A stretch of 64,000 nucleotides of DNA from a virus (lineage: Duplodnaviria; Heunggongvirae; Uroviricota; Caudoviricetes). Location of the stretch: the IMG/VR virus record IMGVR_UViG_3300045988_151230; one strand, given 5' to 3'. Of the stretch, positions 13,832-51,347 are shown one piece after another (the stretch's first letter is position 1; each line of letters begins with the position of its first letter). Below the pieces are notes generated by a model. It saw nothing but the letters and a program-made list of their open reading frames with translations. It was not told where the DNA came from and made no database searches. The translations under genes and the position numbers were made by a program.

Positions 13832-13988
13832 GTAAGTCTCCTTCTGTTTGGTTACATTTGCGTTTCGATGGCTGCATTTTGACTAAACCTATCAGGCGGA
13901 AAAGTATTAAATACAGGCAGGAAATGATTGAAAGGCGACTGTTCTTTAAAAAAAGCCTACTTTAAACTTTTTAAAGTAGGCTTTTGTT

Positions 13989-14546: not shown

Positions 14547-14555
14547 CAGAACTCC

Positions 14556-14975
14556 TTACAACTTCTTAGCGCCCTTAAGTAGTGCGCTACGTACAAATTG
14601 AGCCGCTTTTTTCAAAGTTTCTTCACTGGTTTCACAGACAATCGGATCTTTCCACTTACCTGACACAGTGTTGAGAATATTGATTTGGTTGCTATCCAGA
14701 CAAACAGAGATATAAAGCACTGTGCCACCAGCCAGCATCAAATGCATAGGAAACAGAGGCTTTTTACTGCCTTCACTGAACTGAGACATGGCGATGTTAA
14801 TGGCTTCACCCACTTGTGTACCAACAAGCCCCTGCGCAGTTTCGAATATGGCACGAATAGCCAGACGAGCCTCTCGATCGCTCATAAGCGACCGGGAATG
14901 TTCGTCCGCTACACGAATCAAAGCCTCTGTTGTTTTCCGATCCAGTTCATCTTCAAGCAACATTTCACTAAACAT
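14556..14975 (-). CDS. hypothetical protein
   Basis: 139-aa ORF. Confidence 0.45.
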   Translation of the reverse strand: MFSEMLLEDELDRKTTEALIRVADEHSRSLMSDREARLAIRAIFETAQGLVGTQVGEAINIAMSQFSEGSKKPLFPMHLMLAGGTVLYISVCLDSNQINILNTVSGKWKDPIVCETSEETLKKAAQFVRSALLKGAKKL

Positions 14976-15036
14976 TTTTTATCCTTAACCCATTTTGAGA
15001 GTTTTATTGTCGCAATGTCGAAGAGGCGAACAATTT

Positions 15037-15681
15037 CTAATGAACGGTCACTCGGCCACAGAACCGGTTTTCTATCTTTTCTACAGCGTTATCTAGCATT
15101 CTCATCACTGATCTGGCTCTTGCTTCAACTGTGCGATACCGGTTGGAAACGACGAAGGTTTGCAGATCTCCCCTTTGCGGATGCAGGTGAATTTTTGTCA
15201 GTTCCCCGCACATCAACGCATCAATACGAGCGACATACAGACGGTCTAATGATGCTCGTTGTGACCGCAAGTAATCTCGCTCTGAGAGAGCGACCCCCGG
15301 GCGTAGGCCAGCAATGGCGTTAAAGTTTGAAATAGCAGTTTTGTGGCAAAACTTTTCGATATCGAGGGCTAACTCAATACACCGATCTTCATTTGTATGG
15401 CCGACCAAATCCAACGTGTAGGCCATAACATCAGCAGGTGTGCGATCGATAACAAAGCCTTCAGCACCACGCGTAAGTAGCTCTATATGCTTTGCTATTT
15501 CCATTTGAATCTGAAGCCGCTCATATAGAGGCATAGAATCACCTACTCGAACACCGAGGCGGCTCATCAAACTTCCGACACCAGCATCCACGTAAGGGAT
15601 TCCGTAATGTTTGTCGATATATTTAGCCAGGGTTGTTTTCCCACTGCCCTGAGCACCAGTGATCCCAATCCGGTAATCCAT
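15037..15681 (-). CDS. P-loop NTPase, possible (deoxy)nucleotide kinase
   Basis: Walker A GAQGSGKTT near the N-terminus; sits among nucleotide-metabolism genes. Confidence 0.5.
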   Translation of the reverse strand: MDYRIGITGAQGSGKTTLAKYIDKHYGIPYVDAGVGSLMSRLGVRVGDSMPLYERLQIQMEIAKHIELLTRGAEGFVIDRTPADVMAYTLDLVGHTNEDRCIELALDIEKFCHKTAISNFNAIAGLRPGVALSERDYLRSQRASLDRLYVARIDALMCGELTKIHLHPQRGDLQTFVVSNRYRTVEARARSVMRMLDNAVEKIENRFCGRVTVH

Positions 15682-16157
15682 TACGACCTTCTGTATACGA
15701 TCTGCGAAAAGCCAGGCTCTTCCTCGCTGGCTCGTTGGGTATAAGCTGTTTCAACAGGCACAAAGCCTAAATTACGCATCATGCTTGCCGGGAAGAATGC
15801 ATCGGCGTTTGGCACATCAACGCCGATGTGGGAGAGCCAAATCTCTTCAACATGCGGCATGAATAGCGAGTAAATTTGTTCCCCGCCAATCACCCACACA
15901 GGCTCTGGTAATCGCAACACATCATCCACACCAGCAGGGTAGAATCCATTTGGTACAAAGCCATGAGAGCGCGTCAAAACGAGGTTATGACGCTCTGGAA
16001 GAGGGCGTTTGAGACTTTCCATCGTTTTACGCCCCATAACGACAGTGGCGTTTTTGGTGAGTCTCTTAAATAGCTTCAGATCGGTAGAACAACGCCAGGG
16101 CAGTTCGTTCGCTATGCCGATCTCATAGTTACGGCCAACAGCAGCTATCATCTTCAT
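15681..16157 (-). CDS. dihydrofolate reductase
   Basis: MIAAVGRNYEIGIANELPW...VVMGRKTMESL...WVIGGEQIY pattern. Confidence 0.85.
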   Translation of the reverse strand: MKMIAAVGRNYEIGIANELPWRCSTDLKLFKRLTKNATVVMGRKTMESLKRPLPERHNLVLTRSHGFVPNGFYPAGVDDVLRLPEPVWVIGGEQIYSLFMPHVEEIWLSHIGVDVPNADAFFPASMMRNLGFVPVETAYTQRASEEEPGFSQIVYRRS

Positions 16158-16564
16158 TTGCTCACCTCATAGATGACCGGTCTATGATGAGAGTCAGCTA
16201 AAGCGGCACGGAGTCGAGGATCGTGCACCAGCGCAGCGATAAGCAGATCGCCTTTATGCTCCGCTAATGTGCGCTTAATATGCTTCTCATAACTAGTGCT
16301 ATTCGGTACGAGGTGAAGCCAGTCGTAATCAACACCAAAATCTTTCAGCCATCGTTTAGTGGGCGCTTCAAGAGTTTCAGAGCGGCTACTGATAAGCACC
16401 ACTTCAGCCCCTGAGCGAGCAAAACCACGCAACATACGGCTGGTGGGGAAAATGAGTTCATCACCGGCAATGAATTGGCCTGCATCCGAGTCAGATACAG
16501 ATTTACGATGGCTGGTATTTGCCAGCACACCTTCAATTTCGCATAAGACATACATACCTCTTGC
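16154..16564 (-). CDS. hypothetical protein
   Basis: Start taken at MARGMYV, overlapping the thymidylate synthase stop by a few bases. Confidence 0.4.
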   Translation of the reverse strand, partial: ARGMYVLCEIEGVLANTSHRKSVSDSDAGQFIAGDELIFPTSRMLRGFARSGAEVVLISSRSETLEAPTKRWLKDFGVDYDWLHLVPNSTSYEKHIKRTLAEHKGDLLIAALVHDPRLRAALADSHHRPVIYEVSK

Positions 16565-16568
16565 CATA

Positions 16569-17699
16569 TCACACCGCCACTGGAACCTTGATCCACGGTA
16601 GAGGGGCATAGCCAAGAATAAGAATCTCGTCCCATTTGAAATCATCCAGCTCAGACCATTCATTAGGGAATATAACGACCGGATCTGAATGCTCTGGAGC
16701 CTGTCGTTGCATTAGCTCACACACACCTTCCATGTGGTTGTTGTACAAATGCACGTCAAAGCCAAAATGCACAAATGCACCGGCCATGTGACCCGTAATC
16801 TTCGCGAGAAAATGAGTGAGAATGCCATAGCCAGCAATATTGAATGGCATACCAACAAAAGTGTCTACGCTACGCTGTACGAGGCAGGAGTTGAGGATGC
16901 GTTTGGGGATTCCAAGTTCATCCAGTTCAGTTTCAGTAACACTGCCGTCCATCTCCAGATCGTATAGCATCTTGGTGTAGATAGACTCATAACCGAGGCG
17001 ACTGTGTTGAAGACCAATGTCAGTTGCCATCGTTAAACGGGTTTCAAAATCCAGTTCACGACTCCACAAAGAGAAGACAAAGTGGCAAGGTGGCAGTTTC
17101 ATATCCTCAAGCTCGCCTACGTTCCATGCGTTAAGCATGATGCGACGATCGGTAGGGTTCGTGCGCAGTGTATCGACAATACGCTGTAGCTGATCGATTT
17201 CACGGGACAGCACTACGCGATCTTCACTGATACCCAGGTATCCCTCGACTTTGTACCCGCGTTCACGGAAAGTAGCGATCTTGCTCAGATATTCACTATG
17301 GCTCACGATGCGGGTATCTTCCCATCGACGCCACTGCTTACCGTAAACCGGCCCCAAATCGCCATTCTCATCGGCCCATGCATCCCAAATCTTAACGCCG
17401 TTATCCTTGAGAAATTGGATGTTGCCCGTGCCTTTCAGATACCACTCAAGTTCGACAAGCAGTGGCTTAAGATTTACCGCCTTTCCAGAAATAAGCGGCA
17501 CAGTCCCACCAGTAAGCATGTAGTAAGAGGGAACGTAGCAGGTGCTTAAAGTACCAGTGCCTGTGCGATCATCAGCCTGCACGCCGCTTTTAAGCACCGT
17601 CTCAATAACTTTTGCATACGATGCGTTTGTTACCTGACCGTTCGTATGCTCACGATTCAAAAGGAGTGACACAAAAACCTCACAAAGATAAGTAACCAC
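16569..17699 (-). CDS. thyA: thymidylate synthase with insertions
   Basis: DRTGTGTLS, WADENGDLGPVYGKQWR, NAWNVGELEDMKLPPCH, PFNIAGY motifs; exact start uncertain (track start is GTG). Confidence 0.85.
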   Translation of the reverse strand: MVTYLCEVFVSLLLNREHTNGQVTNASYAKVIETVLKSGVQADDRTGTGTLSTCYVPSYYMLTGGTVPLISGKAVNLKPLLVELEWYLKGTGNIQFLKDNGVKIWDAWADENGDLGPVYGKQWRRWEDTRIVSHSEYLSKIATFRERGYKVEGYLGISEDRVVLSREIDQLQRIVDTLRTNPTDRRIMLNAWNVGELEDMKLPPCHFVFSLWSRELDFETRLTMATDIGLQHSRLGYESIYTKMLYDLEMDGSVTETELDELGIPKRILNSCLVQRSVDTFVGMPFNIAGYGILTHFLAKITGHMAGAFVHFGFDVHLYNNHMEGVCELMQRQAPEHSDPVVIFPNEWSELDDFKWDEILILGYAPLPWIKVPVAV

Positions 17700-33923: not shown

Positions 33924-36263
33924 TTACTCTTCTACTGACTCGGTGGGGTTGTCTTTTGCTCTTCGGTCGTCGATTGCCTGCAAAGCCGCAATGATTTCAG
34001 CCAGTGGCTTCTCCCGATACATCTCGACGATCTGCGATTTGGTGTATTTCTTGTCACCAATTTCAACTCGCCCGCTGGCGTTCTTTGGCAGGTATCCTTC
34101 TTCCAGCATGTACTCGACGAGCGATTCGATAACGTCGAGGCCACGAGTAGGATCGAAGTAGAATTTCCAGGTGCATTTGCCATACGGTGGTGCAACTTTG
34201 TTTTTGATGCATTCTGCGCCTACGTCCTGGCCGATCTTCTCTTTACCATCCTTCATCACCGATGCACCAAGACGGATACGTACAGAAGCGTAGAACTTCG
34301 GTGAATCTCCACCTGGCGACGTAGTAGGGTCGCCAAACATTACACCGATTTTTGTGCGAACCTGATTCAAGAAGATGATGCAGGCGTTGTATTTGCGTGC
34401 CCACAAAGCCAGAGTAGGGAAGTTCGCACTTGTCGCACGAGCCAGTGCCGTATTGTCGTTCATGTTTAGCTGATCTTTGTCTTTGGCAGTGCCTTCAGCC
34501 ATCTTTTCGAACTTCTCGGCTTTGGAGTTCGGAACCATAGACGCAAGTGAGTCAGCCACGATACAGATAGGTGCTGATTCAGGGATAAGCTCTTCATCAC
34601 GTACCAATTTAAGTATTGTGCCGATCAACTCTACAGAGTCTTCGAAGGTGTCAGGCTGCTTGTATACCCACTGACCGTCATCCTCATCTGCGTTCAGGCC
34701 ATTGGCTACAGCCAGGCCAACGTCAAAACTGTTTTCATGATCGAGGAATACCGCCAGACCATCTTGTTTTTGAGCGGAGATCATCGCTGCTGTTGCAAGG
34801 AATGTGTTGTGGCTGATAATCCCGTTAGACCAGAAAGAGTGTGTTTCCGGCATCGCTACGTCGAACGTTGGTGCTTCACCTTCCTCAATAGCCACGACTT
34901 CGTCGTAGAACAAGTTAGAGCCAATTACCGCTGCCAGTTGTGCAAACAGATGCTCGTTAAAACGATTCTTTCTGCCAATGAAGGAGACATAGATTTCTCG
35001 CAGTTTGTCTATTCCGACACGATCGCCGCGGCCAATAACGTGGTCTACCAGAGCGTAGTCTTCACGGGTGGTCTTGGTGAGCGACTCGTAGAGTGATTTC
35101 ACTAAGCCGCTGATGTGCGGAACATAGCCTGAGTAAGTGCGGTCAAAACCAATGTCCCGTTTGGTTGCCACTGATAAACGTGCCGGAGATTCGAAACCAA
35201 TCGTTGACAGAAAAAGGTCGTAATTAGAGCCACTGAATGACAGCCGGTAATATGTATTTTCATAACCCGCGACGTGTTTTTCAGAGATAGTTGACGTAAT
35301 CCCCAGATTCAGGAGCATGAGGCGAATTTGCTGTAGCAGCAGCCCACTCGCGCTCACAACCTCAATGCAGCGACCATCATTGACGTGGCATTCCAGCTCA
35401 AAGTAGCCGCGAAGGAATGCAATTTGAGCCTCGCTATTGGCGCGACGCACACTCAACGGAACCTGCTTGCCAGCAGCTTTCTCATACTCCAGACCATATT
35501 CTTTAAAAAGCAGCGAACGCACCTCTTTGCTAAACAGCACATGGTCTTCCGAGCCGTTATGTTTTCTCGTAACTGGCATCTTGTCTGATACCAGCGAAAT
35601 GAGGCGGTAGTACTCATCCTTGATGAAAGGATCTGTGTTAGAAAAATTCACTGAATTTTCAGAGGCCACGTATCCGTCAGCAATTAAATAGCCCATCAGT
35701 TTTGCGATATTGGCATCCAGGTGCTGATCGCCGAATTGATGTGTGCCAACCATTGAAGGAATCGTGTCGCCTACACTGATTTTTTCAGCATGTCGCCAGA
35801 CGACATTACCTAAGTCGTCAACCACACGGATTGGGTGACGGAACGTAGCCTCGATATAACCGCCTGATGCCAGCTTAATACGCTTGAATTTGCGACGGTT
35901 GTTCCATGTCAGGTGTGAGGTCTTCTCTATCACGCCATTTTCATTGATGAGTCCAACGTTATGCTCTACATCGCGAGTAGTGCATGTCGCTTTGTACCCT
36001 TCAATCTCAAACAACTCTTTCACTGTTACCATTCCACGCTCCGTCAGCAGCATGGTGTCTGCGGTAACACATTTCCCTGCACTTGGAGGACCGAATACTT
36101 CGACGATACGACCACATGGGAAGCCGCCATCGTAACGACCGGAAATAGCTTTGTTTAACGGTGGAAAGCCTGTATCAATCCAATGAGTTACTTTCTGAAT
36201 TTCGTCGTTGCTACCGATTTTCTTTTTCAGAGCAAGTGCCAGTGCGGATTTTCCTTTTGCCAT
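33924..36263 (-). CDS. recA: RecA recombinase interrupted by an intein
   Basis: Exteins align with RecA (GRIVEVFGPPSAGK ... IFLNQVRTKIGVMFGDPTTSPGG ... KNKVAPP); the Walker A is split after GK. Confidence 0.8.
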   Translation of the reverse strand: MAKGKSALALALKKKIGSNDEIQKVTHWIDTGFPPLNKAISGRYDGGFPCGRIVEVFGPPSAGKCVTADTMLLTERGMVTVKELFEIEGYKATCTTRDVEHNVGLINENGVIEKTSHLTWNNRRKFKRIKLASGGYIEATFRHPIRVVDDLGNVVWRHAEKISVGDTIPSMVGTHQFGDQHLDANIAKLMGYLIADGYVASENSVNFSNTDPFIKDEYYRLISLVSDKMPVTRKHNGSEDHVLFSKEVRSLLFKEYGLEYEKAAGKQVPLSVRRANSEAQIAFLRGYFELECHVNDGRCIEVVSASGLLLQQIRLMLLNLGITSTISEKHVAGYENTYYRLSFSGSNYDLFLSTIGFESPARLSVATKRDIGFDRTYSGYVPHISGLVKSLYESLTKTTREDYALVDHVIGRGDRVGIDKLREIYVSFIGRKNRFNEHLFAQLAAVIGSNLFYDEVVAIEEGEAPTFDVAMPETHSFWSNGIISHNTFLATAAMISAQKQDGLAVFLDHENSFDVGLAVANGLNADEDDGQWVYKQPDTFEDSVELIGTILKLVRDEELIPESAPICIVADSLASMVPNSKAEKFEKMAEGTAKDKDQLNMNDNTALARATSANFPTLALWARKYNACIIFLNQVRTKIGVMFGDPTTSPGGDSPKFYASVRIRLGASVMKDGKEKIGQDVGAECIKNKVAPPYGKCTWKFYFDPTRGLDVIESLVEYMLEEGYLPKNASGRVEIGDKKYTKSQIVEMYREKPLAEIIAALQAIDDRRAKDNPTESVEE
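34806..36071 (-). other. intein (about 422 aa) with LAGLIDADG-type homing endonuclease, inserted in the RecA P-loop
   Basis: Starts with Cys after GPPSAGK, ends with His-Asn before Thr; internal LMGYLIADGYVA and FLRGYFELE blocks. Confidence 0.7.
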
Positions 36264-39114: not shown

Positions 39115-39239
39115 GTGCTTTCCTTTTTACTTATCATCTTATATTGATTATATCATTGTGATGATAAGGCAAGGAGTTCGAGGATAGGGGATATGAGGGG
39201 ATAAGAGAAAACATGGCCATAGAGGCCATGTTTATTGGA

Positions 39240-42200
39240 TCACGACTTAATAGTTTCTGCTACGTCGGCTAATATCGCTTCTAGTCGTTCTCCCTCTTCA
39301 GGTCTGAAGTAAAGAATGTTGGGGTTAAACCCGTAAAAGACAGTAACGTCAAGGTCTGGAAGATACTCCTTCCTGCCGACCAAATCGGATGGCTTGTTTT
39401 TGTTGTTAAACAATGCCGTTGCCCGGCTGCCACACGTCAGCACATAGGTCGGACGCACCAGATTGATCTCTTCACGTATAAAGTCGGTGAACTGGCCGAT
39501 CTCGTCTTTGGTGTAGTCTTTTTCTTTGTCTTTAACCTTCTTGCAAACGCCTGTGACATAGAGATCGCCCATGCGTAAATCTCCAGCCGTCAATAGCTTG
39601 GCCTTAAAGTCGTCGTATCCGTTCTCCATAAAGTAACCGGTTCGAGCATCATTGCCGTTCGCATTGTCCAGAATGATCATGATTTTCGGCTTAATACCAA
39701 TGCTGGGGCGGATTAGTTCATCACCTAAGCCCATTTCAGCCGCCATCCGCGTCATGAGTACGTTAATCTCAGCCGAACGTTTGGGGTTCATCTCAAACGG
39801 ACGTGAGGCTTTAACTGCGTCTATGACAAGGTTTCCCATCAATTCAGCCTGGTCGCGTAGGCGCTCTGGATCAGTTGCTGGCAGACTACCTGGCTCGATG
39901 GATGCAAACGCCCCTACTTTTTGCAGCGATTCGCGCACTCGACTATTACAGGCACGTTTCTCGACAGCTTCTTCGAATTGCGCCAGTGACTCGAATTTGC
40001 CGCCAACTTTTTCTCGCGCTCTCATGATGGCTTGGCAGCCATTCTCAGAACACCCCTTCACAGCAGAGAATGGCGCATACAGCACCTGGCTGCCATCTTC
40101 AAGTGTGCGGATCTCGATTCGGTTAGATGACACGTTAACGTCTGGTGGCAATACGCGAATACCATAGGTCAGCGCATCTTTAACCAGCCCCTGGTGTTTA
40201 TCTTCGCCAAGAATAGTGAGAGCAGCAGCGAAAAACTCTGCGGGATAATGAGTTTTCAACCACATAGATTGATAACTGATTAAGGAGTAAGCAACAGAGT
40301 GTGATTTGTTGAACTGGTAGGCACCATTTTTTTCGAATGCGGTCCAGATCTCCTTCGCTTTCATCTCTGATAGCCCTGGATGTGACACTGTAACGCGTAC
40401 TGCGTTTATAGGTAATTTTGCGCCGTGCTCAAGTGCCTCTTCGACAGTTTTCAGAGTTCCGTCTTCGCATTTAAAATGTTCCGCACGGTGAATGCGCTGT
40501 GTAGTGCCATCTTCCAGCTCAACGTCTATCCAGCCAGCTTGAGCCTGAACGATGAACTTCTCGCCCATGCTCTTCATTTTTTCCATGTCTTTTTTGCCGA
40601 TCGCTTTACGAACGCCGTCAGCTTCAGCCATTGTGAAGCCAGCAAGCAATCGAGTCGCGTTCATCGTCTGTTCCTGATAGAGAATCACGCCATTTGTTTC
40701 TGCGGTAAGTTCATCAAGAACGGGGTGTAATGATTCCGGCGTCATAAAGCCTTTGGCTACAGAAACATAGTCATCCAACATGCCTGACTGAATTGGCCCC
40801 GGCCGGAAGAGCGCAGTCGTAGCAACAACCGTTTTAAAGCTCATTGGCTCAATTCCACCACCTAAATCTTTAAGCAGCTTGCGCATTGGGCCTGATTCAA
40901 GCTGGAAAACACCTTGAGTGTACCCAGCAGCAAAACCATCCAGCACCTTGCGATCTTCAAGAGAAATGGCATCAAGATTGATATCTTCACCTGTGTTCTC
41001 TTTTATGTAGCGTTTTGCACTATCGAGCAAATCGAGAGTTGCCAGACCAAGTACGTCCAGTTTAATTAGGCCCATAGCCTCGCAGTAACGCTTGTCAAAT
41101 GCGATACAACGCGCGTCACCACGGCGTTCAACCGGTGTACGTTCTGTCAGAGGAACACCTGCTACGATCATCCCTGCCGCATGTCTACCAAAGCCACGCA
41201 TAAGACTTTGTAACTTGCAGGCTGCATTGAATGCATCAGGATATTTTGTTGCGTATTTGTCGAGACTTGCCAGTTGTTCGCGCAGCTCTTCCAATGGAAG
41301 GCTATCATCCTCGACGTTCTTCAGTTCTTTTGATACCGCCATATCTGCGGACTCCACACCATAAATACGAGCGGTGTCACGTAGTGCAGAGGCCGCGCCC
41401 AGGTAGGTGAAGTTCGGAATGCCTGCAACGTAATCTTCGCCGTAGCGTTCATTCAGATACTCGATCACCTCATGGCGACGTGCCTGGCTGAAGTCCAAGT
41501 CCGCATCCGGCAAGTCGAGACGCTCAGGGTTGATGAAACGCTCAAACAGAAGACCGTGACGGATTGGGTCGACGTTGGTTATGCCTATGCACCACGCCAC
41601 CAGAGAACCGGCAGAGGAACCGCGACCAGGCCCGACAGGAATGCCAGTTTCACGGCTGTGATTCATCAGATCGCGTACCATCAGGAAGTAACCACAGAAT
41701 CCCAGGCGAGTCAGCGTGTCCATTTCGTACTTTAGCCGCTCAACATAAACCCTGTTCTCAGAAGCAGGTGGTGTGTATCCAAACTCTTTTGTGGTAAGAC
41801 GTTTACGCAGCCCTGCAACAGCCAGTTTCATCAGCGTTGCAGGTTCGTCGTCTGCCATCTTGGGCAGTGCTGGTGGCAATTCATGCCAGCGCCATGTGCA
41901 GGCATCGATAATGGAGTCCTGCGTTGTTGAGGCCATTGCAGCTGTTACCGGCACATCCATGCGAACGGAGAAGGCTTTAAGCGCCTCAAGGAGATGGCGA
42001 CGACCATTGATGGCGTTATCTCGCTGGTGGGGGATACGCAGACGATGCGGCTGGTCGATTTTTATGTTGTTCGTAACCATGTGCGCAATGTCTTTAATGT
42101 CTGCATCGTCGATCGATTCGTAATAAGCGGGATAGAACGCTACTGGCTCTATTTTCAGTGCGCTGGCGACTTTCATCGCTCGGACGTTAATCTGGTCGTA

Positions 42201-42758
42201 GAATGGGGTAGGGTGCGGATAAACCACACTATAGAAGTTGTCTTTCCCGCCCGCTGTAATCAGTGAGCTTATGATTTTTGCAAAATCGTTGCGTTGGAAC
42301 ACGCTACCGATGTCGGAAGTGAGCAGGATGATGTTGCCTTTGGCATATGTAGAAACCAACTGTTCGAGCGAGAGACGCGGTACAAAGTAGAACTGTTCTC
42401 GTGTGTTGGCCACCGTCATTAGTTCGCAGATGTCGCGATATCCTTGCTCATTTTTAATTAGAGCGGTAAACGAGTAGTTACGTCCCCGCTCTAATGATTC
42501 CATACATCTCATAGATTCTTTAGCAAGTTTAGCCCGGTGCTCGTATGTGGGATCATCAACAATGTTTAGTTTCACACCACAAATAACCGCCATGTCGTCA
42601 CCAGCGGCACGTTGTAGTGGAATAACGCTCGCAATATTCATGCTATCTGCTGAAATTACAGCGGTGTAGCCAGCTTCTCTGGCAATCTTCACCGCGTTTT
42701 CTGCTTTTAGAGCCGACTCCCCAAGTGAGAAGTCAGTTCGAACCATCAGTGCCTTCAT
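39240..42758 (-). CDS. dnaE: DNA polymerase III alpha-like replicative polymerase (DnaE family)
   Basis: 1172 aa; N-terminal PHP domain; catalytic GPGRGSSAGSLVAWCIGITNVDP...LLFERFINPERLDLPDADLDF. Confidence 0.9.
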   Translation of the reverse strand: MKALMVRTDFSLGESALKAENAVKIAREAGYTAVISADSMNIASVIPLQRAAGDDMAVICGVKLNIVDDPTYEHRAKLAKESMRCMESLERGRNYSFTALIKNEQGYRDICELMTVANTREQFYFVPRLSLEQLVSTYAKGNIILLTSDIGSVFQRNDFAKIISSLITAGGKDNFYSVVYPHPTPFYDQINVRAMKVASALKIEPVAFYPAYYESIDDADIKDIAHMVTNNIKIDQPHRLRIPHQRDNAINGRRHLLEALKAFSVRMDVPVTAAMASTTQDSIIDACTWRWHELPPALPKMADDEPATLMKLAVAGLRKRLTTKEFGYTPPASENRVYVERLKYEMDTLTRLGFCGYFLMVRDLMNHSRETGIPVGPGRGSSAGSLVAWCIGITNVDPIRHGLLFERFINPERLDLPDADLDFSQARRHEVIEYLNERYGEDYVAGIPNFTYLGAASALRDTARIYGVESADMAVSKELKNVEDDSLPLEELREQLASLDKYATKYPDAFNAACKLQSLMRGFGRHAAGMIVAGVPLTERTPVERRGDARCIAFDKRYCEAMGLIKLDVLGLATLDLLDSAKRYIKENTGEDINLDAISLEDRKVLDGFAAGYTQGVFQLESGPMRKLLKDLGGGIEPMSFKTVVATTALFRPGPIQSGMLDDYVSVAKGFMTPESLHPVLDELTAETNGVILYQEQTMNATRLLAGFTMAEADGVRKAIGKKDMEKMKSMGEKFIVQAQAGWIDVELEDGTTQRIHRAEHFKCEDGTLKTVEEALEHGAKLPINAVRVTVSHPGLSEMKAKEIWTAFEKNGAYQFNKSHSVAYSLISYQSMWLKTHYPAEFFAAALTILGEDKHQGLVKDALTYGIRVLPPDVNVSSNRIEIRTLEDGSQVLYAPFSAVKGCSENGCQAIMRAREKVGGKFESLAQFEEAVEKRACNSRVRESLQKVGAFASIEPGSLPATDPERLRDQAELMGNLVIDAVKASRPFEMNPKRSAEINVLMTRMAAEMGLGDELIRPSIGIKPKIMIILDNANGNDARTGYFMENGYDDFKAKLLTAGDLRMGDLYVTGVCKKVKDKEKDYTKDEIGQFTDFIREEINLVRPTYVLTCGSRATALFNNKNKPSDLVGRKEYLPDLDVTVFYGFNPNILYFRPEEGERLEAILADVAETIKS

Positions 42759-42938
42759 GTGTTTTTACCTTTCTGGTTTTTTTGATTTTGTCATTGGGGA
42801 AGCCTACGAACTTCCCATGCATCGAAATCGCAACTTCTTTTGCTGATTGGTGACAATCGGGCTTGTCTGGACACACCAGACAAGCCTTACCAGTTTCAGA
42901 AGCAGCGATAAGAGAGCCGAAACATCCTTTACGCACGA

Positions 42939-44174
42939 TTAACCAAATATTTTTTGAACAACTTCACGAGCCGCTTGTGCAGAAGCTGAAGGGAGTTTGT
43001 TAATGAAAGAACGCTCAATACCTGTCACAAAGTCGCCTCGCATCATTCCAATCTTGGCCGACAACAAAAGTTCACGAGGGCCAATTGGCTGACTAATGAG
43101 GTGTTCTTCGTATCCATCGCGAACGATACCGGCAAACTTAACCATCTTTTCAGCGTATTCATCCACGATGCCTGCATTTGTCAACATGTTGATCTCTGCG
43201 TCTTTGCTCATGTATTTCACATTCGAAACGATGCCAAAACGCGAAAAGTTCGCGGCGTTCTGGATGTTTGTACCCTGGTACAAGCCGGTTTCATCACCAG
43301 ATCCGTTCGTGTTGCCAGTGCCAATGAAAGCAAACCGTTCATGCGGAGTAATGCGACGCCATTCTGGAGTTGCCTCTTTGATGACCAACGCTTCACCTTC
43401 CAGCACTGGCTGATACACGCCAAGAATTTGTGGAAACGCAAAGTCGTATTCATCCGCGAGGTAAACCCAGCCATGCTTCATTGCGAGCGCAAGCAAGCCA
43501 GGTTCGAAATACGTAGAGCCATCACGCGCCAGAATTTGCCCCGTAACATGTGCCTCTTCCATTGATGCTGTATGTTGGGCACGGATCAACGGACGATTGA
43601 GCAAAGCACATAGCTGTGTAGGCAATGACGATTTGCCTGTTCCTGCATGACCCCACAAATAGCCAGGTATGCCAAGTTCAAGCATCATGAAAATATCTTT
43701 GATCAGTTCGAAGTCGCCATATACGTAGCCTTTCTTCACTTCGGGAACGAACTCTGGATACGGCGTATTGACGTTGACGCTAACCATGAGCGGCGTCCCA
43801 CGTTTTGTTCCGAGTTCTTCCACCGTTACGTTTAGCAGTTCGTGAGCTGCGACCAGATCTGTCTTGTACTCAACTGTGCCTGTGTAGCCAGGGCTACTGG
43901 TCAAGCCAGAAGATTTGGCCATTTCGCTTTTTTGCTCGGCACGTTTAGCTTGAATTGCATCAAGTGCCTTTTTCGATAGCGTTGGTTCATCTGGAAACTG
44001 CGTTGTGTACATTTTCAGTACGGTGTCAGGATCGGCATCTTTTACTGACTCAGGAATGCCCTCGCAATTACCATTGGCTACATGGGACTTAAAATAGTGA
44101 AATGATTTGCCGCACCACTTGCAAACAAGGTAATCAGAAGGATTTTTTTCATTTTGCAGTGCAGTAGTCGTCAT
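42939..44174 (-). CDS. CobS/MoxR-like AAA+ ATPase
   Basis: Walker A GHAGTGKSS, Walker B-like VYLADEYDF; N-terminal CxxC...C zinc-ribbon-like segment. Confidence 0.6.
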   Translation of the reverse strand: MTTTALQNEKNPSDYLVCKWCGKSFHYFKSHVANGNCEGIPESVKDADPDTVLKMYTTQFPDEPTLSKKALDAIQAKRAEQKSEMAKSSGLTSSPGYTGTVEYKTDLVAAHELLNVTVEELGTKRGTPLMVSVNVNTPYPEFVPEVKKGYVYGDFELIKDIFMMLELGIPGYLWGHAGTGKSSLPTQLCALLNRPLIRAQHTASMEEAHVTGQILARDGSTYFEPGLLALAMKHGWVYLADEYDFAFPQILGVYQPVLEGEALVIKEATPEWRRITPHERFAFIGTGNTNGSGDETGLYQGTNIQNAANFSRFGIVSNVKYMSKDAEINMLTNAGIVDEYAEKMVKFAGIVRDGYEEHLISQPIGPRELLLSAKIGMMRGDFVTGIERSFINKLPSASAQAAREVVQKIFG

Positions 44175-44269
44175 GCGTTTTTCCTTTGTTCTCTAATGAG
44201 CGTTCAACTTCTTATATAAATATATCATTATATATCGTAAGTGGTTACTTATCGTTAAGGCTGTTTTGT

Positions 44270-46378
44270 TCACTTTAAAATGATACGAGATAGTTCAGTA
44301 ACTACAGATGAACCAAGACTATCAACGCTCGTTACCAGGGCATGATTTGAGTAAAATCTCTCCGGTGCGTCAGTCATGATGCCAATTGCCATCAAATCAA
44401 TATCAGTCTGCGTTTCAATTTGCTTCGCAACTGAACGCAAATGAGCGTCAAAACCTCTCCCAACAGCCCACGGCGCGCCATCACTCAGAACAAGCATGAT
44501 CTTCCTGTCCTCCATGCGACCGGAAAATAACGATGCAAGGCTGGCTATGCTTTCACCATCCACGTTATTAAGAAGTGGGAATGTGTAGCCTACGCACCCC
44601 ATACGTGAGCGAACTTCGCGAGAATTTACCTTTTCATTCCAATTTTTGATGATAGGTAGCATTAAAGATTCAAAGCGAGAGAACTCATACTTGACAGCCT
44701 TAAGTTCTCCTGCCGCCATATGACTACCAAATGTAGTGAAGCCGGTGATAATGTTGGGAACATTTATTCGATCAAGGGCATCGGCGATGGTATATGCACT
44801 TGCAAGAGCCAGTTTAATCGTTATACCACTCATTGAACCTGATAAATCAATCACTTGTTGAACACAGGCGTTAACGGCTTTAGATTCTTCTTTTTTACGA
44901 AACACGCGAGCATCATTCATTGCTAATCTGTAGATACTAGAACCATGAATGCGCCCCCGACGCTGGCCCGGTATAAACTGAACTCTGTTTCTGCTTGCTA
45001 TTGCTCGCTCCAGGTCTTTTGCCAGCGTCGACGAAACACCTGACGAAAGATGCTTTTCAATATATTTGTCGAAGAGCTGGTTGCCTTCAGGAACGATGCG
45101 ATAGCGGCTGATTGGATATCCTCCCAAATCAATATCGGAGAATGTTTTAATAAGCCGTTTGATATGGGCTTCTGCCTGATCAATCGAGCCGATGAAGTCG
45201 TATGAGCGATTGTATGGCCTGTATTCGCTTTTCGAGCTTTCTGTTAACTCGCTTTTAATCGTTTCGGATAGCGCATCTTCTGTCATGCCTCCGACTTCAT
45301 CTTCCATGCTATCCAACTCCTCTAAAGCCTCTTCCAGACTCATTTTTGACGGAGTTGGGATATCTGAAGAGCCGTCTTCTGTCGTTTTTCTTTTTTCGTG
45401 GTCAGCGGTTAATGATTCTGACGCCGCGTTATCAGAAGCATCAGAATCTGATACCTCTTTATCATTTTCTGTATCATCGAATATTGTTTCTGATGATTCA
45501 GAATTATCTGAATCATCACTGTCGTTATTATCATGTTTGTACTTACTATGTGATTCTGATTTGATAGATTTGTGATTATCTAACACTGAGGGAGTCTCAT
45601 GATCTTCGTTGTCTTCATTGTTTTCTCCAGAGGCATCCGTCTGGTCAGCGTCTGAAGGATCGGAAGTTTTTCCCGGAGCTGACTCCTTACCTTTGCTTTC
45701 ACTTTCAGTGTCTTTGAGGATCTTAGCTATGGTCGCAGCCACCTTTACACAATCCTCGGTGCAAGACATGTTACGCACGGCCACATCGATACCATGTTCT
45801 TTTAATAATGAAATTGGTTTCTCAATGACAGGCCAATGTTCATCCATGAAATCTACGAACGGTGCTTGGCCATCCCAGGCTCTTACAACCGGACAGAGAA
45901 AGAAGTTTAGAAAAAGCGCGCGCTGATCTTTGCCACAATAAGCAATAGCCTCTGAAGCCTTTGGTTTAAAGACTTTTTCGATTATAAGGCGCTGAGTTGC
46001 CATCAGATTACGTCTTGTTCCGTTAAAGACCTGACCCATTTTTCGCTCGATGAACACGTCTTCTAAGGCATTCCATAGCGACCAGGAAGGAACGCGTCCT
46101 TTTTCTCTCATTTTGTTGGACACACGAATATCGGTAAACAAAATGTGAGCAACCTCATGATCGAGAAATCCGCGCACAGCATTCATCAATGCCGGTGTTG
46201 CGTTATCCGGGATTGATGGGATGTTTACGAGAATTGGCTCTCCATCATCGTTATAGCGTACATAAGCGTCGTCCCCTCGTTCTGCAACAGGGATGTTTTT
46301 ACCTGAAAGGAGAGCGACTACTCGTTTTACACTGTCACGGAAGTCCTGAACCTCTTTGATGGAACGTTTTTTAGACAT
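44270..46378 (-). CDS. vWA-domain protein (CobT-like partner) with a long acidic Ser/Asp-rich region
   Basis: MIDAS motif VIDLSGSMSG in the C-terminal vWA domain; 702 aa. Confidence 0.6.
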   Translation of the reverse strand: MSKKRSIKEVQDFRDSVKRVVALLSGKNIPVAERGDDAYVRYNDDGEPILVNIPSIPDNATPALMNAVRGFLDHEVAHILFTDIRVSNKMREKGRVPSWSLWNALEDVFIERKMGQVFNGTRRNLMATQRLIIEKVFKPKASEAIAYCGKDQRALFLNFFLCPVVRAWDGQAPFVDFMDEHWPVIEKPISLLKEHGIDVAVRNMSCTEDCVKVAATIAKILKDTESESKGKESAPGKTSDPSDADQTDASGENNEDNEDHETPSVLDNHKSIKSESHSKYKHDNNDSDDSDNSESSETIFDDTENDKEVSDSDASDNAASESLTADHEKRKTTEDGSSDIPTPSKMSLEEALEELDSMEDEVGGMTEDALSETIKSELTESSKSEYRPYNRSYDFIGSIDQAEAHIKRLIKTFSDIDLGGYPISRYRIVPEGNQLFDKYIEKHLSSGVSSTLAKDLERAIASRNRVQFIPGQRRGRIHGSSIYRLAMNDARVFRKKEESKAVNACVQQVIDLSGSMSGITIKLALASAYTIADALDRINVPNIITGFTTFGSHMAAGELKAVKYEFSRFESLMLPIIKNWNEKVNSREVRSRMGCVGYTFPLLNNVDGESIASLASLFSGRMEDRKIMLVLSDGAPWAVGRGFDAHLRSVAKQIETQTDIDLMAIGIMTDAPERFYSNHALVTSVDSLGSSVVTELSRIILK

Positions 46379-46476
46379 GGCTAATCCTTTGTTATGAAAA
46401 CAAATTATTTACTAGTGTGTTTAATGTAGCACTGCGCGAACAGGGAACTAAGCCATTCGCGCAGGGAGAAGAGGGG

Positions 46477-46689
46477 TTAACAGATTCTGACGGCTAAAGA
46501 CCCGGAGCCGATATTGAGAAGCGTGAAGCGTTTGTTGTTAAGTTCGAATATAAAGCCAGTTGTGTCATTCACACCAACCTGAATCTGCTCATTCGGTAGA
46601 TCGGTGAGGATGTCAGCTACACACTCATCAGCTAATTTCTGTACGTGTCCGATCTCAAGAGCGATTAGGCTGGAAATAGTGGTGTTCAT
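46477..46689 (-). CDS. hypothetical small protein
   Basis: 70-aa ORF. Confidence 0.35.
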   Translation of the reverse strand: MNTTISSLIALEIGHVQKLADECVADILTDLPNEQIQVGVNDTTGFIFELNNKRFTLLNIGSGSLAVRIC

Positions 46690-46939: not shown

Positions 46940-47326
46940 ATGTCTGACAACAAGATTGAATTTATAGAAAGTCGCTATGCTGCTTTTATCGCAGGGCTGA
47001 TTGAATCCTCACCTATGAGTCAGGCCCAAATAGCCAGACTTATTGGTTATAAAAATGCCAACAACCTTTCTTTAATTAAAAGTGGCAAAATTCCTTTGCC
47101 TATCGATAAGGTTCGTCCGTTGGCGCTGGCGCTGGGTATTGAGCCAAGTCGTCTTATGATGATGGTGCTGGAAGAACGCCAACCTGAACTCGCAGCATTT
47201 TTATACAAAGAAGGCACCGCTCCTCTTAACGAGGACGAAAAACAGGTTCTTGCTGCATATAACGAGCGATTCGGTAAAGAGAAAGGCGCATCACAAAAGG
47301 TTGTTGAGGCCATAAAGTCTCTATGA
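46940..47326 (+). CDS. helix-turn-helix DNA-binding protein, candidate regulator
   Basis: MSQAQIARLIGYKNANNLSLIKSG helix-turn-helix-like segment; candidate promoter TTTACA-16 bp-TAATAT with a GGTAAGcacTTACC palindrome upstream. Confidence 0.5.
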   Translation: MSDNKIEFIESRYAAFIAGLIESSPMSQAQIARLIGYKNANNLSLIKSGKIPLPIDKVRPLALALGIEPSRLMMMVLEERQPELAAFLYKEGTAPLNEDEKQVLAAYNERFGKEKGASQKVVEAIKSL

Positions 47327-48634: not shown

Positions 48635-48883
48635 TCAGAGGGTGCTGACGTATGCAGCCAGTTCTGTGTATCCGCCAATCGGTTGGCCATTGATCAGTAC
48701 CTGGGGGATAGTCTCTACCGGTTTACCAACAATTTCACTAAGTTTTTCCTTGTCGATACCGGCAGTGGTGATGTCGATGTACTCATAATCACCGTAGCCA
48801 TGTCCCTTTAGTTGCTTCGCCAGCTCGACCGCACGTTTGCAGTATGAACAGTTATCTCGTCCGTAGATAACGACTTTCATCAC
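48635..48883 (-). CDS. glutaredoxin / NrdH-like redoxin
   Basis: 82 aa with the CSYC active site in VVIYGRDNCSYCKRA. Confidence 0.75.
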   Translation of the reverse strand: MMKVVIYGRDNCSYCKRAVELAKQLKGHGYGDYEYIDITTAGIDKEKLSEIVGKPVETIPQVLINGQPIGGYTELAAYVSTL

Positions 48884-50796: not shown

Positions 50797-50883
50797 TGGC
50801 GGAGAGTAATGGAATCGAACCATCATCGCTTGCGCAATGGGACGGTTTTCAAGACCGCTTGAGCACCATGCTCCCTACTCTCC
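50797..50883 (-). tRNA. tRNA-Ser (anticodon UGA), class II with long variable arm
   Basis: GGAGAGT/ACTCTCC acceptor stem, anticodon loop CTTGAAA, T-loop TTCGATT, encoded CCA. Confidence 0.8.
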
Positions 50884-51100
50884 AATTGTTGTGGTTACCG
50901 GTACTGATCTCCGGCTTAGCGACCCCGGCTACTGACTGCATTGCAGTGTGTGAACTCGCCTCGTGTGTCGCTGGGGCATTTCTTTCCGCGCATCAGTCTG
51001 CGCATCAACCACAACGAAAAGAGCACTGTATGACGTTTGCACGGACTTACGCTTAAAACAGGGCAGTCTCGGCGGTTTTCAATGCTCTTTCCTGTTGTGT

Positions 51101-51176
51101 TGGTGCCGGTTAACGGACTCGAACCGCTGACATCCTGCTTACAAGGCAGGCGCTCTACCAACTGAGCTAAACCGGC
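51101..51176 (-). tRNA. tRNA-Thr (anticodon UGU)
   Basis: GCCGGTT/AACCGGC acceptor stem, D-arm GCTCAGTTGGTAGAGC, anticodon loop CTTGTAA, encoded CCA. Confidence 0.85.
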
Positions 51177-51180
51177 AATT

Positions 51181-51267
51181 TGGTGGGGAGTGATGGAGTC
51201 GAACCACCCGAGTCGCAATGACAGTAGATTTACAGTCTACACCGCTACCTCTACGGACTAACTCCCC
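51181..51267 (-). tRNA. tRNA-Tyr (anticodon GUA), class II
   Basis: GGGGAGT/ACTCCCC acceptor stem, anticodon loop CTGTAAA, long variable arm, T-loop TTCGACT, encoded CCA. Confidence 0.8.
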
Positions 51268-51272
51268 TAAAT

Positions 51273-51347
51273 TGGCGATGGTGGGTGGATTCGAACCACC
51301 GACCAGTTGGTTAACAGCCAACTGCTCTACCGCTGAGCTACACCATC
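51273..51347 (-). tRNA. tRNA-Asn (anticodon GUU)
   Basis: GATGGTG/CACCATC acceptor stem, anticodon loop CTGTTAA, T-arm GGTGGTTCGAATCCACC, encoded CCA. Confidence 0.85.

Follow-up and report, generated by a model that had tools for sequence, protein, structure and literature searches.

A CobS/CobT-type motor-adaptor pair with an intact HExxH motif and a candidate DNA-binding finger, encoded upstream of dnaE in an SSU5-type phage-plasmid

We analysed a stretch of 64,000 nucleotides (the window) from an SSU5/pHCM2-type phage-plasmid with an E. coli host. Two minus-strand open reading frames lie exactly where the original prediction had placed them. A cobT-like gene (44270-46378, 702 aa) encodes an M48-like N-terminal domain, an acidic disordered linker, a shaft segment and a vWA/MIDAS domain, and a cobS-like gene (42939-44174, 411 aa) encodes a candidate Ros/MucR-type zinc-finger region at the N-terminus followed by a MoxR-class AAA+ module. 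Their neighbour is a genuine dnaE gene for DNA polymerase III alpha (39240-42758, minus strand; Pfam PHP, DNA_pol3_alpha, finger and HHH_6 domains), as expected from the claim that the pair adjoins the replicative polymerase. The wording that it sits directly after the polymerase is correct in plus-strand coordinates only; in the direction of transcription the pair is upstream of dnaE, with which it forms one apparent operon. The closely packed genes are transcribed in the order 70-aa ORF, cobT-like, cobS-like, 67-aa ORF, dnaE. The 67-aa ORF (42733-42936, minus strand) belongs to a family of unknown function (PHROG 6337, E 3e-45), starts 2 nt past the cobS-like stop codon and overlaps the start of dnaE by 26 nt. 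The 70-aa ORF immediately upstream of the cobT-like gene (46477-46689, minus strand; PHROG 2627, E 5e-40) is probably the first gene of the transcription unit; other lineages have small ORFs at this position, and comparison did not establish homology among them. A divergent HTH regulator gene (46940-47326, plus strand), annotated as 'putative repressor' in phage Cyrano, would be the candidate for control of the operon, whose promoter is probably located within the 250-bp divergent region next to it. A terminator-like hairpin with a 10-bp stem, found by a consensus scan as a pattern match only, lies just past the dnaE stop codon (39209-39233, minus strand) and may mark the end of the operon. 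The window also contains a glutaredoxin gene at 48635-48883.

The arrangement is conserved well beyond this element. CobT, CobS and DnaE were encoded in this order and on a single strand at all 16 of the 16 diverse loci examined, with DnaE identities as low as 28%. In ICP2-type phages and T4-like cyanophages, the pair is found beside helicase and Pol I genes, or beside clamp and clamp-loader genes. The relative phage Cyrano (98.5% identical, 108 kb, of which the first 100 kb were checked) encodes class Ia NrdAB, ThyX and DHFR, and its class Ia reductase is B12-independent.

Profile searches for CobS, CobT and vWA assigned the two proteins to Pfam CobT, CobT_C and AAA_5 and to PHROG 1576 and PHROG 249, with matches far beyond chance (E-values down to 1e-301). 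Together with best PDB matches to Brucella CobS and CobT, these assignments established that a CobS-like MoxR-class AAA+ ATPase adjoins a MIDAS-bearing CobT-like vWA protein, as had been proposed. The ATPase matched Pfam AAA_5 (E 2e-15) and, over residues 11-410, PHROG 249, named 'porphyrin biosynthesis' (E 1.1e-106). Its best PDB match was Brucella CobS 9ujv (E 1e-25), followed by midasin, CbbQ and NorQ. Against the equivalog model TIGR01650 it scored 86.6 bits versus a cutoff of 558.55, over residues 141-411 only. These residues form the AAA+ module (42942-43754, minus strand), with Walker A at G175-S182, Walker B at D241-E242, sensor-1 N288, arginine finger R312 and sensor-2 R367. All seven AAA+ catalytic residues are kept and are invariant in the family alignment, mapping onto Brucella CobS as G175/K181 to G71/K77, D241/E242 to D141/E142, N288 to N186, R312 to R210 and R367 to R271. 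A CbbQ_C small subdomain was present in 59 of 59 homologues.

The N-terminal extension of the ATPase (residues 12-70, 43965-44141, minus strand) carries the pattern C18-x2-C21-G-x3-H26-x4-H31 ... Y56 ... P61 ... S67 and resembles a divergent Ros/MucR-type zinc finger. When a profile was built from 12 sequences of the extension, the Ros DNA-binding domain 2jsp was the sole significant PDB match (E 4.7e-4). Among 59 homologues, 26 matched Pfam ROS_MUCR (PF05443) at E<=0.01. Of eight scanned one by one, two scored above the curated cutoff. The window copy itself had no Pfam match, and a Foldseek search with its AlphaFold2 model (pLDDT 82) returned no matches. Putative ligands C-x2-[C/D]-x9-H-x4-H, with Cys or Asp as the second ligand and a conserved Y...P after them, would be common to the extension and the Ros/MucR domain (PF05443; Ros87, 2jsp), whose zinc-ligand pattern is C-x2-[C/D]-x9-H-x3-4-H. 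The window copy retains C18, C21 and H31 but differs by an insertion of 12 residues and at its last ligand, where a Cys at +6 replaces the His at +4, and is too divergent for the Pfam model. A Cys-to-Asp change at the second ligand is known in the Ros family (PMC5745721), and the homologues here fit this pattern. Ros/MucR proteins are described as H-NS-like proteins that bind AT-rich DNA (PMC11662661). They normally carry the domain fused to a MucR oligomerisation domain, whereas in the phage it is fused to an AAA+ ATPase. The extension is restricted to the proteobacterial clade that encodes DnaE, which includes many phage-plasmid-like contigs besides SSU5-type elements, Pseudomonas ZY21 and Rhizobium RHph_N1_10; it is missing from the CobS of cyanophages and ICP2. 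The finger would probably tether the machine to DNA.

The CobT-like protein matched Pfam CobT at residues 9-294 (E 6.5e-27), Pfam CobT_C at residues 492-701 (E 3e-82) and PHROG 1576 over its full length (residues 5-702, E 3.3e-301). The best PDB match was Brucella CobT 9uka_G (E 7e-17), and RefSeq now names the phage protein 'cobaltochelatase CobT-related protein'. Against the equivalog model TIGR01651 the score was 66 bits versus a cutoff of 759.05, over residues 295-697 only, so that the N-domain went unrecognised. This N-domain (residues 1-228, 45695-46378, minus strand) is predicted to consist of a helix, a three-stranded sheet and a helical bundle, and the topology of the model is that of published CobT_N. 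It contains an HExxH motif, H74-E75-V-A-H78 (46145-46159, minus strand), that is invariant in 57 diverse relatives, and the long helix after it carries the conserved N103, E106, D107 and E111. The motif was intact in 143 of 146 full-length diverse viral-type representatives and in none of 123 cellular CobT proteins (120 from Rhizobiaceae and three from other orders). Where the window protein reads RGFLDHEVAH, all cellular CobT sequences examined read RGxxD[SA]xAL[RQ], a degenerate, pseudo-peptidase helix. In gluzincin metallopeptidases (M48/M56-like), the zinc ligands are an HExxH on one helix and a Glu on a later helix of a zincin fold. Since a putative complete HExxH...E zinc site is kept, unlike in true CobT, the N-domain probably either works as a peptidase or at least binds metal.

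Downstream of the N-domain, the acidic Ser/Asp/Glu-rich linker (about residues 229-440, 45059-45694, minus strand; S 16%, D 13.5%, E 12.6%) includes the Ser/Asp-rich stretch singled out in the original prediction (DSDDSDNSESSE...). This stretch is real and lies within a region of about 210 residues (226-440) with a net charge of -34, but the description of it as unusual did not survive comparison: Brucella and Sinorhizobium CobT have a disordered acidic linker of about 90 residues, and the family median is more acidic than the window copy. The highest D+E content over 60 residues was 0.35 for the window protein, against medians of 0.50 for 146 viral-type proteins and 0.48 for 120 cellular CobT proteins. 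What really separates the pair from CobST, and had been missed, is the intact HExxH, the lack of CobN in the sequence covered and the probable zinc finger at the N-terminus of the ATPase. A segment equivalent to the CobT shaft follows the linker (about residues 466-507, 44858-44983, minus strand), aligns with Brucella CobT residues from about 373 to 413 and bears a GxRxGR...DDRVFR signature conserved in the family alignment. In Brucella, the CobT shaft inserts into the pore of the CobS ring (bioRxiv 10.64898/2026.07.21.739949). The vWA domain (residues 492-701, 44276-44905, minus strand) carries the MIDAS D511-x-S513-G-S515, encoded at 44834-44848, and an S-D633-G motif, neither of which varies among relatives, and DxSGS occurs in 143 of 146 representatives.

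Comparison with the class I cobaltochelatase of Brucella melitensis, Sinorhizobium and Pseudomonas denitrificans (9ujv, 9uka; bioRxiv 10.64898/2026.07.21.739949) showed the same AAA+ catalytic residues and the same three-part CobT build of M48-like N-domain, acidic disordered linker, and shaft plus vWA domain with MIDAS. The polar CobS-CobT_N contacts are kept as well, with phage E404, Q407 and K408 facing R69, D73 and N124, and these contacts would join the ATPase small subdomain to the adaptor N-domain as in cellular CobST. Other parts of the interface are lost. The C-terminal CobS helix alpha10 (A322-V326), which binds CobT_N, is absent, the phage protein ending at the residue aligned with Brucella G315; the CobT alpha1 patch that matches alpha10 is likewise missing; and the CobS pore residues that touch the shaft are changed. 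The phage ATPase has an additional N-terminal region of about 140 residues with the zinc finger, and the phage order of cobT then cobS is the reverse of the cellular order of cobS then cobT (four of four loci examined). We found no report in the literature of the HExxH motif, the Ros/MucR fusion, the reversed order or the contact-patch loss relative to cellular CobST.

A CobN partner for the phage pair is also lacking in the sequence covered, as no CobN-like gene is present in the window, where no ORF other than DnaE exceeds 800 aa, or in the first 100 of the 108 kb of phage Cyrano. To our knowledge, based on established B12 metabolism, E. coli has no CobN of its own. The same family is abundant in elements of Klebsiella, Acinetobacter, Yersinia and Vibrio, hosts in which, as far as we know, the aerobic B12 pathway is likewise absent or unusual. 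Production of cobyrinic acid diamide in E. coli has been shown to depend on heterologous cobN, cobS and cobT (PMC6249242), and the entire upstream aerobic pathway is needed as well; because of these requirements, E. coli offers neither the partner nor the substrate of a chelatase motor.

A viral copy of CobS/CobT is in itself well known and widespread. Few so-called auxiliary metabolic genes of tailed viruses are as widespread as cobS, which usually has a cobT-like gene with it, and cobS has been reported as core in marine T4-like cyanophages. Clusters of cobST in tailed viruses (PHROG 249 plus PHROG 1576) have been published, and the phage pair is a member of that family, along with those of SSU5/pHCM2/pMT1-type phage-plasmids, Vibrio phage ICP2, haloarchaeal tailed viruses and T4-like cyanophages, the last having cobS plus a gene annotated 'peptidase'. 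Adjacency, the cobT-then-cobS order and a position among replication or nucleotide-metabolism genes are common to these clusters and the window pair, and HExxH is common to the CobT-like proteins of Rhizobium phage, ICP2-type phages and cyanophages; the ATPase finger of the window clade is not found in cyanophage or ICP2 CobS. That the role on phages is not established, as the original prediction stated, is in line with the literature: PMC9983427 calls the function of cyanophage cobS unknown, and we found no published functional test.

We assign a probability of roughly 0.45 to the reading that the pair is a virus-type derivative of the CobS/CobT motor-adaptor, CobN-independent and unrelated to cobalamin in this host, that acts on a replication client. 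With no chelatase partner, a retained zinc site of the protease type and a probable DNA-binding finger, the pair most likely has a different, replication-linked job. By homology, six CobS-like AAA+ subunits would assemble into an ATP-driven ring that grips the shaft segment of the CobT-like protein, with the adaptor N-domain docked on the ATPase small subdomain. Two modules of the adaptor, the M48-like N-domain and the vWA/MIDAS domain, would be available to bind the client or act on it catalytically, while the Ros/MucR-type finger on the ATPase would anchor the machine to DNA. The client would be a protein or nucleoprotein complex met in phage or plasmid DNA replication, which would be remodelled, removed or cleaved. 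A replication-linked client is likely since dnaE and the pair share an apparent transcription unit within the replication and recombination module.

It is possible, though unlikely, that viral 'CobT' is the catalytic arm of an ATP-driven, DNA-tethered metalloprotease/segregase and not a chelatase adaptor. Six Ros-type fingers would then anchor the ring on DNA while the ring pulls the adaptor shaft, and a DNA-bound client, caught by the MIDAS domain, would be cut at the live M48-like site. At replication forks, SPRTN/Wss1 act as DNA-dependent metalloproteases together with the AAA+ unfoldase p97/Cdc48, and there too, as proposed for the phage pair, an HExxH zincin and an AAA+ motor are combined with a DNA-binding element in the setting of replication. 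The likeness is one of analogy only: the parts are arranged differently, and no sequence or fold relationship to the phage pair was found. If such a machine exists, tailed phages would possess replication-coupled protein removal analogous to SPRTN/Wss1 plus p97, and the cellular cobaltochelatase motor would derive from a machine of this kind, its protease domain inactivated and reused for CobN docking.

We regard as doubtful the alternative that the pair is a MoxR/vWA maturation chaperone, which would insert or exchange a metal in a phage enzyme in the way that NorQ/NorD serve nitric oxide reductase; candidate clients are NrdB, a di-iron subunit, and the PHP domain of the neighbouring DnaE, which binds metal. 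The MoxR AAA+/vWA pairs NorQ/NorD, CbbQ/CbbO, RavA/ViaA, CoxD/CoxE and midasin likewise consist of an AAA_5-type ATPase and a MIDAS adaptor through which the ring engages a client, and their known clients are metabolic enzymes or pre-ribosomes. We know of no description of such adaptors with an M48-like live HExxH, or of such ATPases with a Ros-type finger. Chaperone function would be in keeping with the presence of NorQ and CbbQ among the PDB matches, the dnaE linkage at 16 of 16 loci, the glutaredoxin gene nearby (48635-48883), the location of nrdC beside the CobT-like gene in cyanophage Syn33 and the presence of NrdAB on the element, and maturation is the general activity of CobST, BchI/D, NorQD, CoxDE and CbbQO (bioRxiv 10.64898/2026.07.21.739949). 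However, the pair is kept in ICP2-type phages, which have Pol I, and in cyanophages, which have a T4-type polymerase, so DnaE cannot be the client in general. A maturation role explains neither the conserved HExxH nor the DNA-binding finger, and nothing direct points to any client.

A role in host takeover or counter-defence appears improbable. Here a DNA-tethered motor and peptidase would free the incoming or induced genome from host proteins bound to DNA, for instance nucleoid-associated silencers, roadblocks or defence proteins, by stripping them off or cleaving them. The kinship of the finger with the H-NS-like AT-rich DNA binders described in PMC11662661 and the intact zincin motif are consistent with this, and the start of the operon beside a repressor-like gene suggests early expression. 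A search of the PADLOC-DB 2.0 defence models gave no match beyond a negligible 15.9-bit match to DrmE; because it is absent from these models, the pair is not itself a known defence system. The proposal is nevertheless wholly inferential and overlaps the replication-client reading, from which only its client differs; moreover, relatives without the finger exist, and there is no similarity to known anti-defence proteins.

It is very improbable that the pair works as auxiliary metabolic genes (Liu et al. 2021), with viral CobS/CobT replacing or supplementing the host motor and driving host CobN to place cobalt into hydrogenobyrinic acid a,c-diamide, thereby yielding more cobalamin for B12-dependent enzymes in infection, because it meets the absence of CobN from the first 100 of the 108 kb of Cyrano, the B12-independent reductase and the requirements of E. 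coli set out above, both proteins fall far below the curated cobaltochelatase cutoffs, and the N-domain differs systematically from that of true CobT. Hijacking of host CobN by viral CobST, proposed for archaeal and bacterial tailed viruses (PMC8651126), is the sole proposal that we found in the literature; it agrees with the database names ('porphyrin biosynthesis', 'cobalamin biosynthesis protein CobT'), with solved CobS and CobT being the closest sequence relatives, and with the retained CobT architecture, MIDAS and polar contacts.

Virome studies routinely score cobS as 'vitamin B12 synthesis', a label that does not fit E. coli phage-plasmids, and any answer on the role of phage CobS/CobT would correct much metagenomic annotation. 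This role is directly testable because laboratory E. coli supports growth of the relatives Cyrano and PhiR41_1, and the residues that separate the viral proteins from the chelatase motor can be mutated at the HExxH site, the MIDAS, Walker B and the zinc finger. Annotated copies of the pair already exist in 4% of complete E. coli genomes, in about 500 phages and in >1000 plasmids, the last being those of clinical Enterobacteriaceae and Acinetobacter.

The two genes lie side by side on the minus strand, as a cobT-like ORF at 44270..46378 (702 aa) and a cobS-like ORF at 42939..44174 (411 aa), each with an AAGGA ribosome-binding site in front of it. Profile searches for CobS, CobT and vWA domains matched the cobT-like protein to Pfam CobT (residues 9-294, E 6.5e-27), to CobT_C, which is the vWA domain (residues 492-701, E 3e-82), and to PHROG 1576 (E 3e-301). 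The cobS-like protein was matched by AAA_5 and by PHROG 249, 'porphyrin biosynthesis' (E 1e-106). The ORFs and the AAA_5, CobT and CobT_C matches confirmed the original prediction of a CobS-like AAA+ ATPase paired with a CobT-like vWA protein in this region; its interpretation is right in substance and wrong on the linker. The pair had also been placed directly after the replicative polymerase. It does adjoin dnaE, but because transcription runs from a 70-aa ORF through the cobT-like gene, the cobS-like gene and a 67-aa ORF to dnaE, it lies upstream of the polymerase. The 67-aa ORF begins 2 nt past the stop codon of the cobS-like gene and runs into the start of dnaE, and a terminator-like hairpin follows dnaE (39233-39209, minus strand). 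Encoded downstream of dnaE are a UvsY-like protein, a gp32-type SSB, a flap endonuclease and a RecA that contains an intein. In a promoter scan, sigma-70-like sites were fewer than in shuffled sequence, and none upstream of the operon was convincing.

The pair is a known and very common viral gene pair and its occurrence is ordinary, as the plasmid, phage and E. coli genome counts and the published cobST clusters of tailed viruses (PMC3037004; PMC8651126) make plain. Escherichia phages Cyrano, PhiR41_1 and CMS-2020a (two records) were 97.3-99.5% identical to the region, and Salmonella phage SSU5 75%. E. coli plasmids matched it at 100% identity, and DNA-level matches were present in 464 plasmid records. 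At the protein level, 1023 plasmid records carried the vWA domain, among them 347 from Klebsiella, 229 from Escherichia and 147 from Acinetobacter. Of the 1023, 884 were typed as non-mobilizable; among the matches listed, most plasmids were ~100-120 kb in size. Among complete E. coli genomes 219 of 5426 carried the pair, plasmid-borne every time. Of the 494 phage records with the ATPase, 434 were cyanophages, a group in which the function of cobS has been stated as unknown (PMC9983427). In RefSeq the larger protein goes by the name 'cobaltochelatase CobT-related protein'. A profile search of genome contigs aimed at cellular CobT yielded only 13 phage-plasmid-like loci, adding diversity and no control, and a viral-contig search yielded 80 close SSU5-type relatives, adding no diversity. 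The CobT-CobS-DnaE module was seen on ~100-130 kb contigs of Magnetospirillum, Faunimonas, Paracoccus and Phyllobacterium, and on contigs of other sizes from Methylocystis, Castellaniella, Oxalobacter and Xenorhabdus (comparison loci L006-L018). This distribution suggests that SSU5-like phage-plasmids with such a replication module are spread over Alpha-, Beta- and Gammaproteobacteria.

We mapped the published Brucella contact residues onto the window proteins by way of the genuine Sinorhizobium cobS-cobT locus, which was chosen because all of these residues match there. The seven ATPase catalytic residues of cellular CobS are kept in the cobS-like protein, as are the polar CobS-CobT_N contacts on both partners (E404, Q407 and K408 of the ATPase; R69, D73 and N124 of the adaptor). 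The shaft segment aligns with that of Brucella CobT and bears family-wide conserved residues, and the MIDAS is invariant among relatives. Since catalytic residues, polar contacts, shaft and MIDAS are all conserved, the two proteins, by homology, very probably assemble like CobST. In Brucella CobT (bioRxiv 10.64898/2026.07.21.739949) ~90 disordered residues link an M48-like N-domain to a C-domain that combines a 'shaft' with a vWA/MIDAS fold, and this linker is likewise acidic. The Ser/Asp-rich stretch of the window protein, originally called unusual, turned out to be unremarkable: its peak D+E fraction in any 60-residue window was 0.35, below the medians of both 120 cellular CobT (0.48) and 146 viral-type representatives (0.50). 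The acidic linker is a family trait.

What is new is a set of systematic differences from the chelatase motor, the first of which lies in the adaptor's N-domain. Where cellular CobT reads RG-x-x-D-[SA]-x-A-L-[RQ], the same helix of the window protein reads RGFLD-H-E-V-A-H. All 12 proteins taken from diverse proteobacterial loci had the HExxH motif, as did 143 of the 146 full-length representatives, each drawn from a different 50%-identity cluster. It was found in none of 120 Rhizobiaceae CobT and was likewise absent from Pandoraea, Sphingomonas and Cereibacter CobT, a cellular control covering four proteobacterial orders only. H74, E75, H78, E106, D107 and E111 are invariant in an alignment of 57 sequences. 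An AlphaFold2 model of the N-domain (pLDDT 89, pTM 0.84) has the topology of published CobT_N; it places the HExxH on the first helix past the sheet, with the conserved Glu residues on the long helix that follows. Searched against the PDB, the phage N-domain failed to retrieve Brucella CobT_N as a profile and gave only spurious HLA matches as a single sequence. The comparison with cellular CobT was made via the Sinorhizobium locus with MAFFT and hhalign; the hhalign match was weak (E 0.015, probability 3%) and in the same register as MAFFT. An ImmA/IrrE-type anti-repressor protease, considered given the neighbouring repressor gene, had no profile or fold support. The predicted zinc site on the adaptor is probably functional, and we found no published mention of this phage HExxH difference. 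Pandoraea oxalativorans pPO70-1 (comparison locus L025, 372-7830) carries a cellular-type cobS-cobT pair without HExxH directly after ureC/B/A, ureD and ureG and not among cob genes, a placement that prompts the question whether its task is nickel or urease maturation.

The motor differs as well. The cobS-like ATPase has an N-terminal extension of ~140 residues that cellular, cyanophage and ICP2 CobS do not have, with a conserved core of C-x2-[C/D]-G-x3-H-x4-H...Y...P...S. The only significant PDB match of the extension profile was the Ros zinc-finger DNA-binding domain (E 4.7e-4). Pfam ROS_MUCR was matched by 26 of 59 homologues at E<=0.01, and above the curated cutoff by two of eight scanned individually; a second ligand that alternates between Cys and Asp, as in this core, is typical of the Ros family (PMC5745721). 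Membership of the window extension in the Ros/MucR family is, on these profile matches, probable rather than proven, because the window copy is divergent, has no Pfam match of its own, and gave nothing in a Foldseek search with a model of the finger region (pLDDT 82). Support from fold is weak for this extension and for the adaptor's N-domain alike. A 'DNA binding protein' encoded between the cyanophage cobT and cobS genes, considered as a free-standing Ros finger, proved to be a pyrimidine-dimer glycosylase. We found no published Ros-CobS fusion. Relative to cellular CobST, the hydrophobic half of the CobS-CobT_N contact is missing on both window partners, and the pore residues that touch the shaft are changed.

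Gene order sets the two groups apart too: cobT precedes cobS at every viral-type locus examined, whereas cobS precedes cobT at all four cellular loci. The order CobT-CobS-DnaE on one strand was found in 16 of 16 loci long enough to judge, drawn from metagenomes and from contigs assigned to Alpha-, Beta- and Gammaproteobacteria, with DnaE identity down to 28%. ICP2-type phages carry the pair upstream of helicase and Pol I genes, and in a T4-like cyanophage cobS precedes the clamp and clamp-loader genes and the CobT-like gene, there labelled 'peptidase', comes after nrdC. The link of the pair to replication and nucleotide metabolism is consistent; it may reflect mere inheritance of a conserved early module. 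One metagenomic relative of the replication module (comparison locus L020, 11076-14450) has a DnaE with a fused uracil-DNA glycosylase (UDG) domain. Genuine cobS-cobT genes have a conserved neighbourhood of their own, being preceded by BolA-family and J-domain protein genes in Sphingomonas (L026, 3023-7797) and Cereibacter (L027, 3172-7857), with a J-domain-like ORF also upstream in Sinorhizobium (L019, 2012-5873).

The pair is not a cobaltochelatase in an E. coli host. Against the curated equivalog models, the cobS-like protein scored 86.6 bits (cutoff 558.55) and the cobT-like protein 66 bits (cutoff 759), with its N-domain unmatched. The window has no ORF longer than 800 aa other than DnaE, and no CobN was found in the first 100 of 108 kb of the annotated Cyrano genome. 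Cyrano encodes class Ia NrdAB, ThyX and DHFR and is thereby independent of a B12-dependent reductase. For E. coli to form the chelatase product, heterologous cobN, cobS and cobT had to be supplied along with the upstream pathway, and the proteins called 'CobS' and 'CobT' in E. coli itself are unrelated enzymes of the nucleotide loop (PMC6249242). Given the systematic differences from the true chelatase motor, the label of B12 auxiliary metabolic gene is untenable for this element, and these differences offer a testable alternative to it. The best-supported reading, to which we assign a probability of about 0.45, is a CobN-independent motor-adaptor with a replication-linked protein or nucleoprotein client. 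The motor-adaptor would act on this client during replication; the adaptor would carry the probably functional zinc site and the motor, in this clade, a DNA tether. Maturation of a metal cofactor in a phage enzyme, such as NrdB or DnaE, is unlikely, and a host-takeover or counter-defence variant more doubtful still. The published CobN-hijack model is very improbable in an E. coli host, and as a defence system the pair was rejected, PADLOC being negative. In Cyrano (OV696614.1, 43137-46576) the cobT-like gene is labelled 'dimethylbenzimidazole phosphoribosyltransferase' and the cobS-like gene 'cobalamin synthetase', labels that belong to the unrelated CobT and CobS with which Salmonella and E. 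coli assemble the nucleotide loop and that are wrong here because the names collide.

Several smaller features surround the operon. Between the 70-aa ORF and the cobT-like gene lies an inverted repeat (46433-46472, minus strand; CTGCGCGAA ... TTCGCGCAG) with 9-bp arms and a loop of ~15 nt, right after the 70-aa stop and ~50 nt ahead of the cobT-like start, without a T-run behind it; the repeat might act as a regulatory hairpin or as a site of RNA processing. A small ORF upstream of cobT was considered as a conserved third component and dropped, with only 12-22% identity and no demonstrable homology. The 67-aa ORF (42733-42936, minus strand; PHROG 6337) contains the Cys-rich motif CLVCPDKPDC, and its product may be a small protein that binds zinc; the slot between cobS-like and dnaE is filled in other lineages by unrelated ORFs of 170-180 aa. 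In plasmid NZ_CP031136.1 (L001, 99.8% identical), the counterpart of window dnaE (39240-42758) is locus 13100-17650, where the gene table lists an HNH endonuclease (14364-15098) and no CDS for dnaE. Such a listing suggests that some relatives have a split polymerase gene, an intein or a mobile insertion; alternatively, the missing CDS could be an omission from the PLSDB gene table. A GrxA/NrdC-type glutaredoxin gene (48635-48883, minus strand) lies ~2 kb upstream of the pair, and in cyanophage Syn33 (L005, 5627-5896) nrdC immediately precedes the CobT-like 'peptidase' gene; the association with redox partners of ribonucleotide reductase may be a recurrent one. A tRNA cluster at 50797-51347 on the minus strand comprises four genes, for Ser(tga), Thr(tgt), Tyr(gta) and Asn(gtt), where the Cyrano annotation has Asn, Thr and Ser only. 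The RecA/UvsX-type recombinase (33924-36263, minus strand, 779 aa) is split by an intein carrying a homing endonuclease of the LAGLIDADG type, and RefSeq labels the whole ORF only 'LAGLIDADG family homing endonuclease'; a metagenomic relative shows the domain order RecA_N, Intein_splicing, RecA_N.
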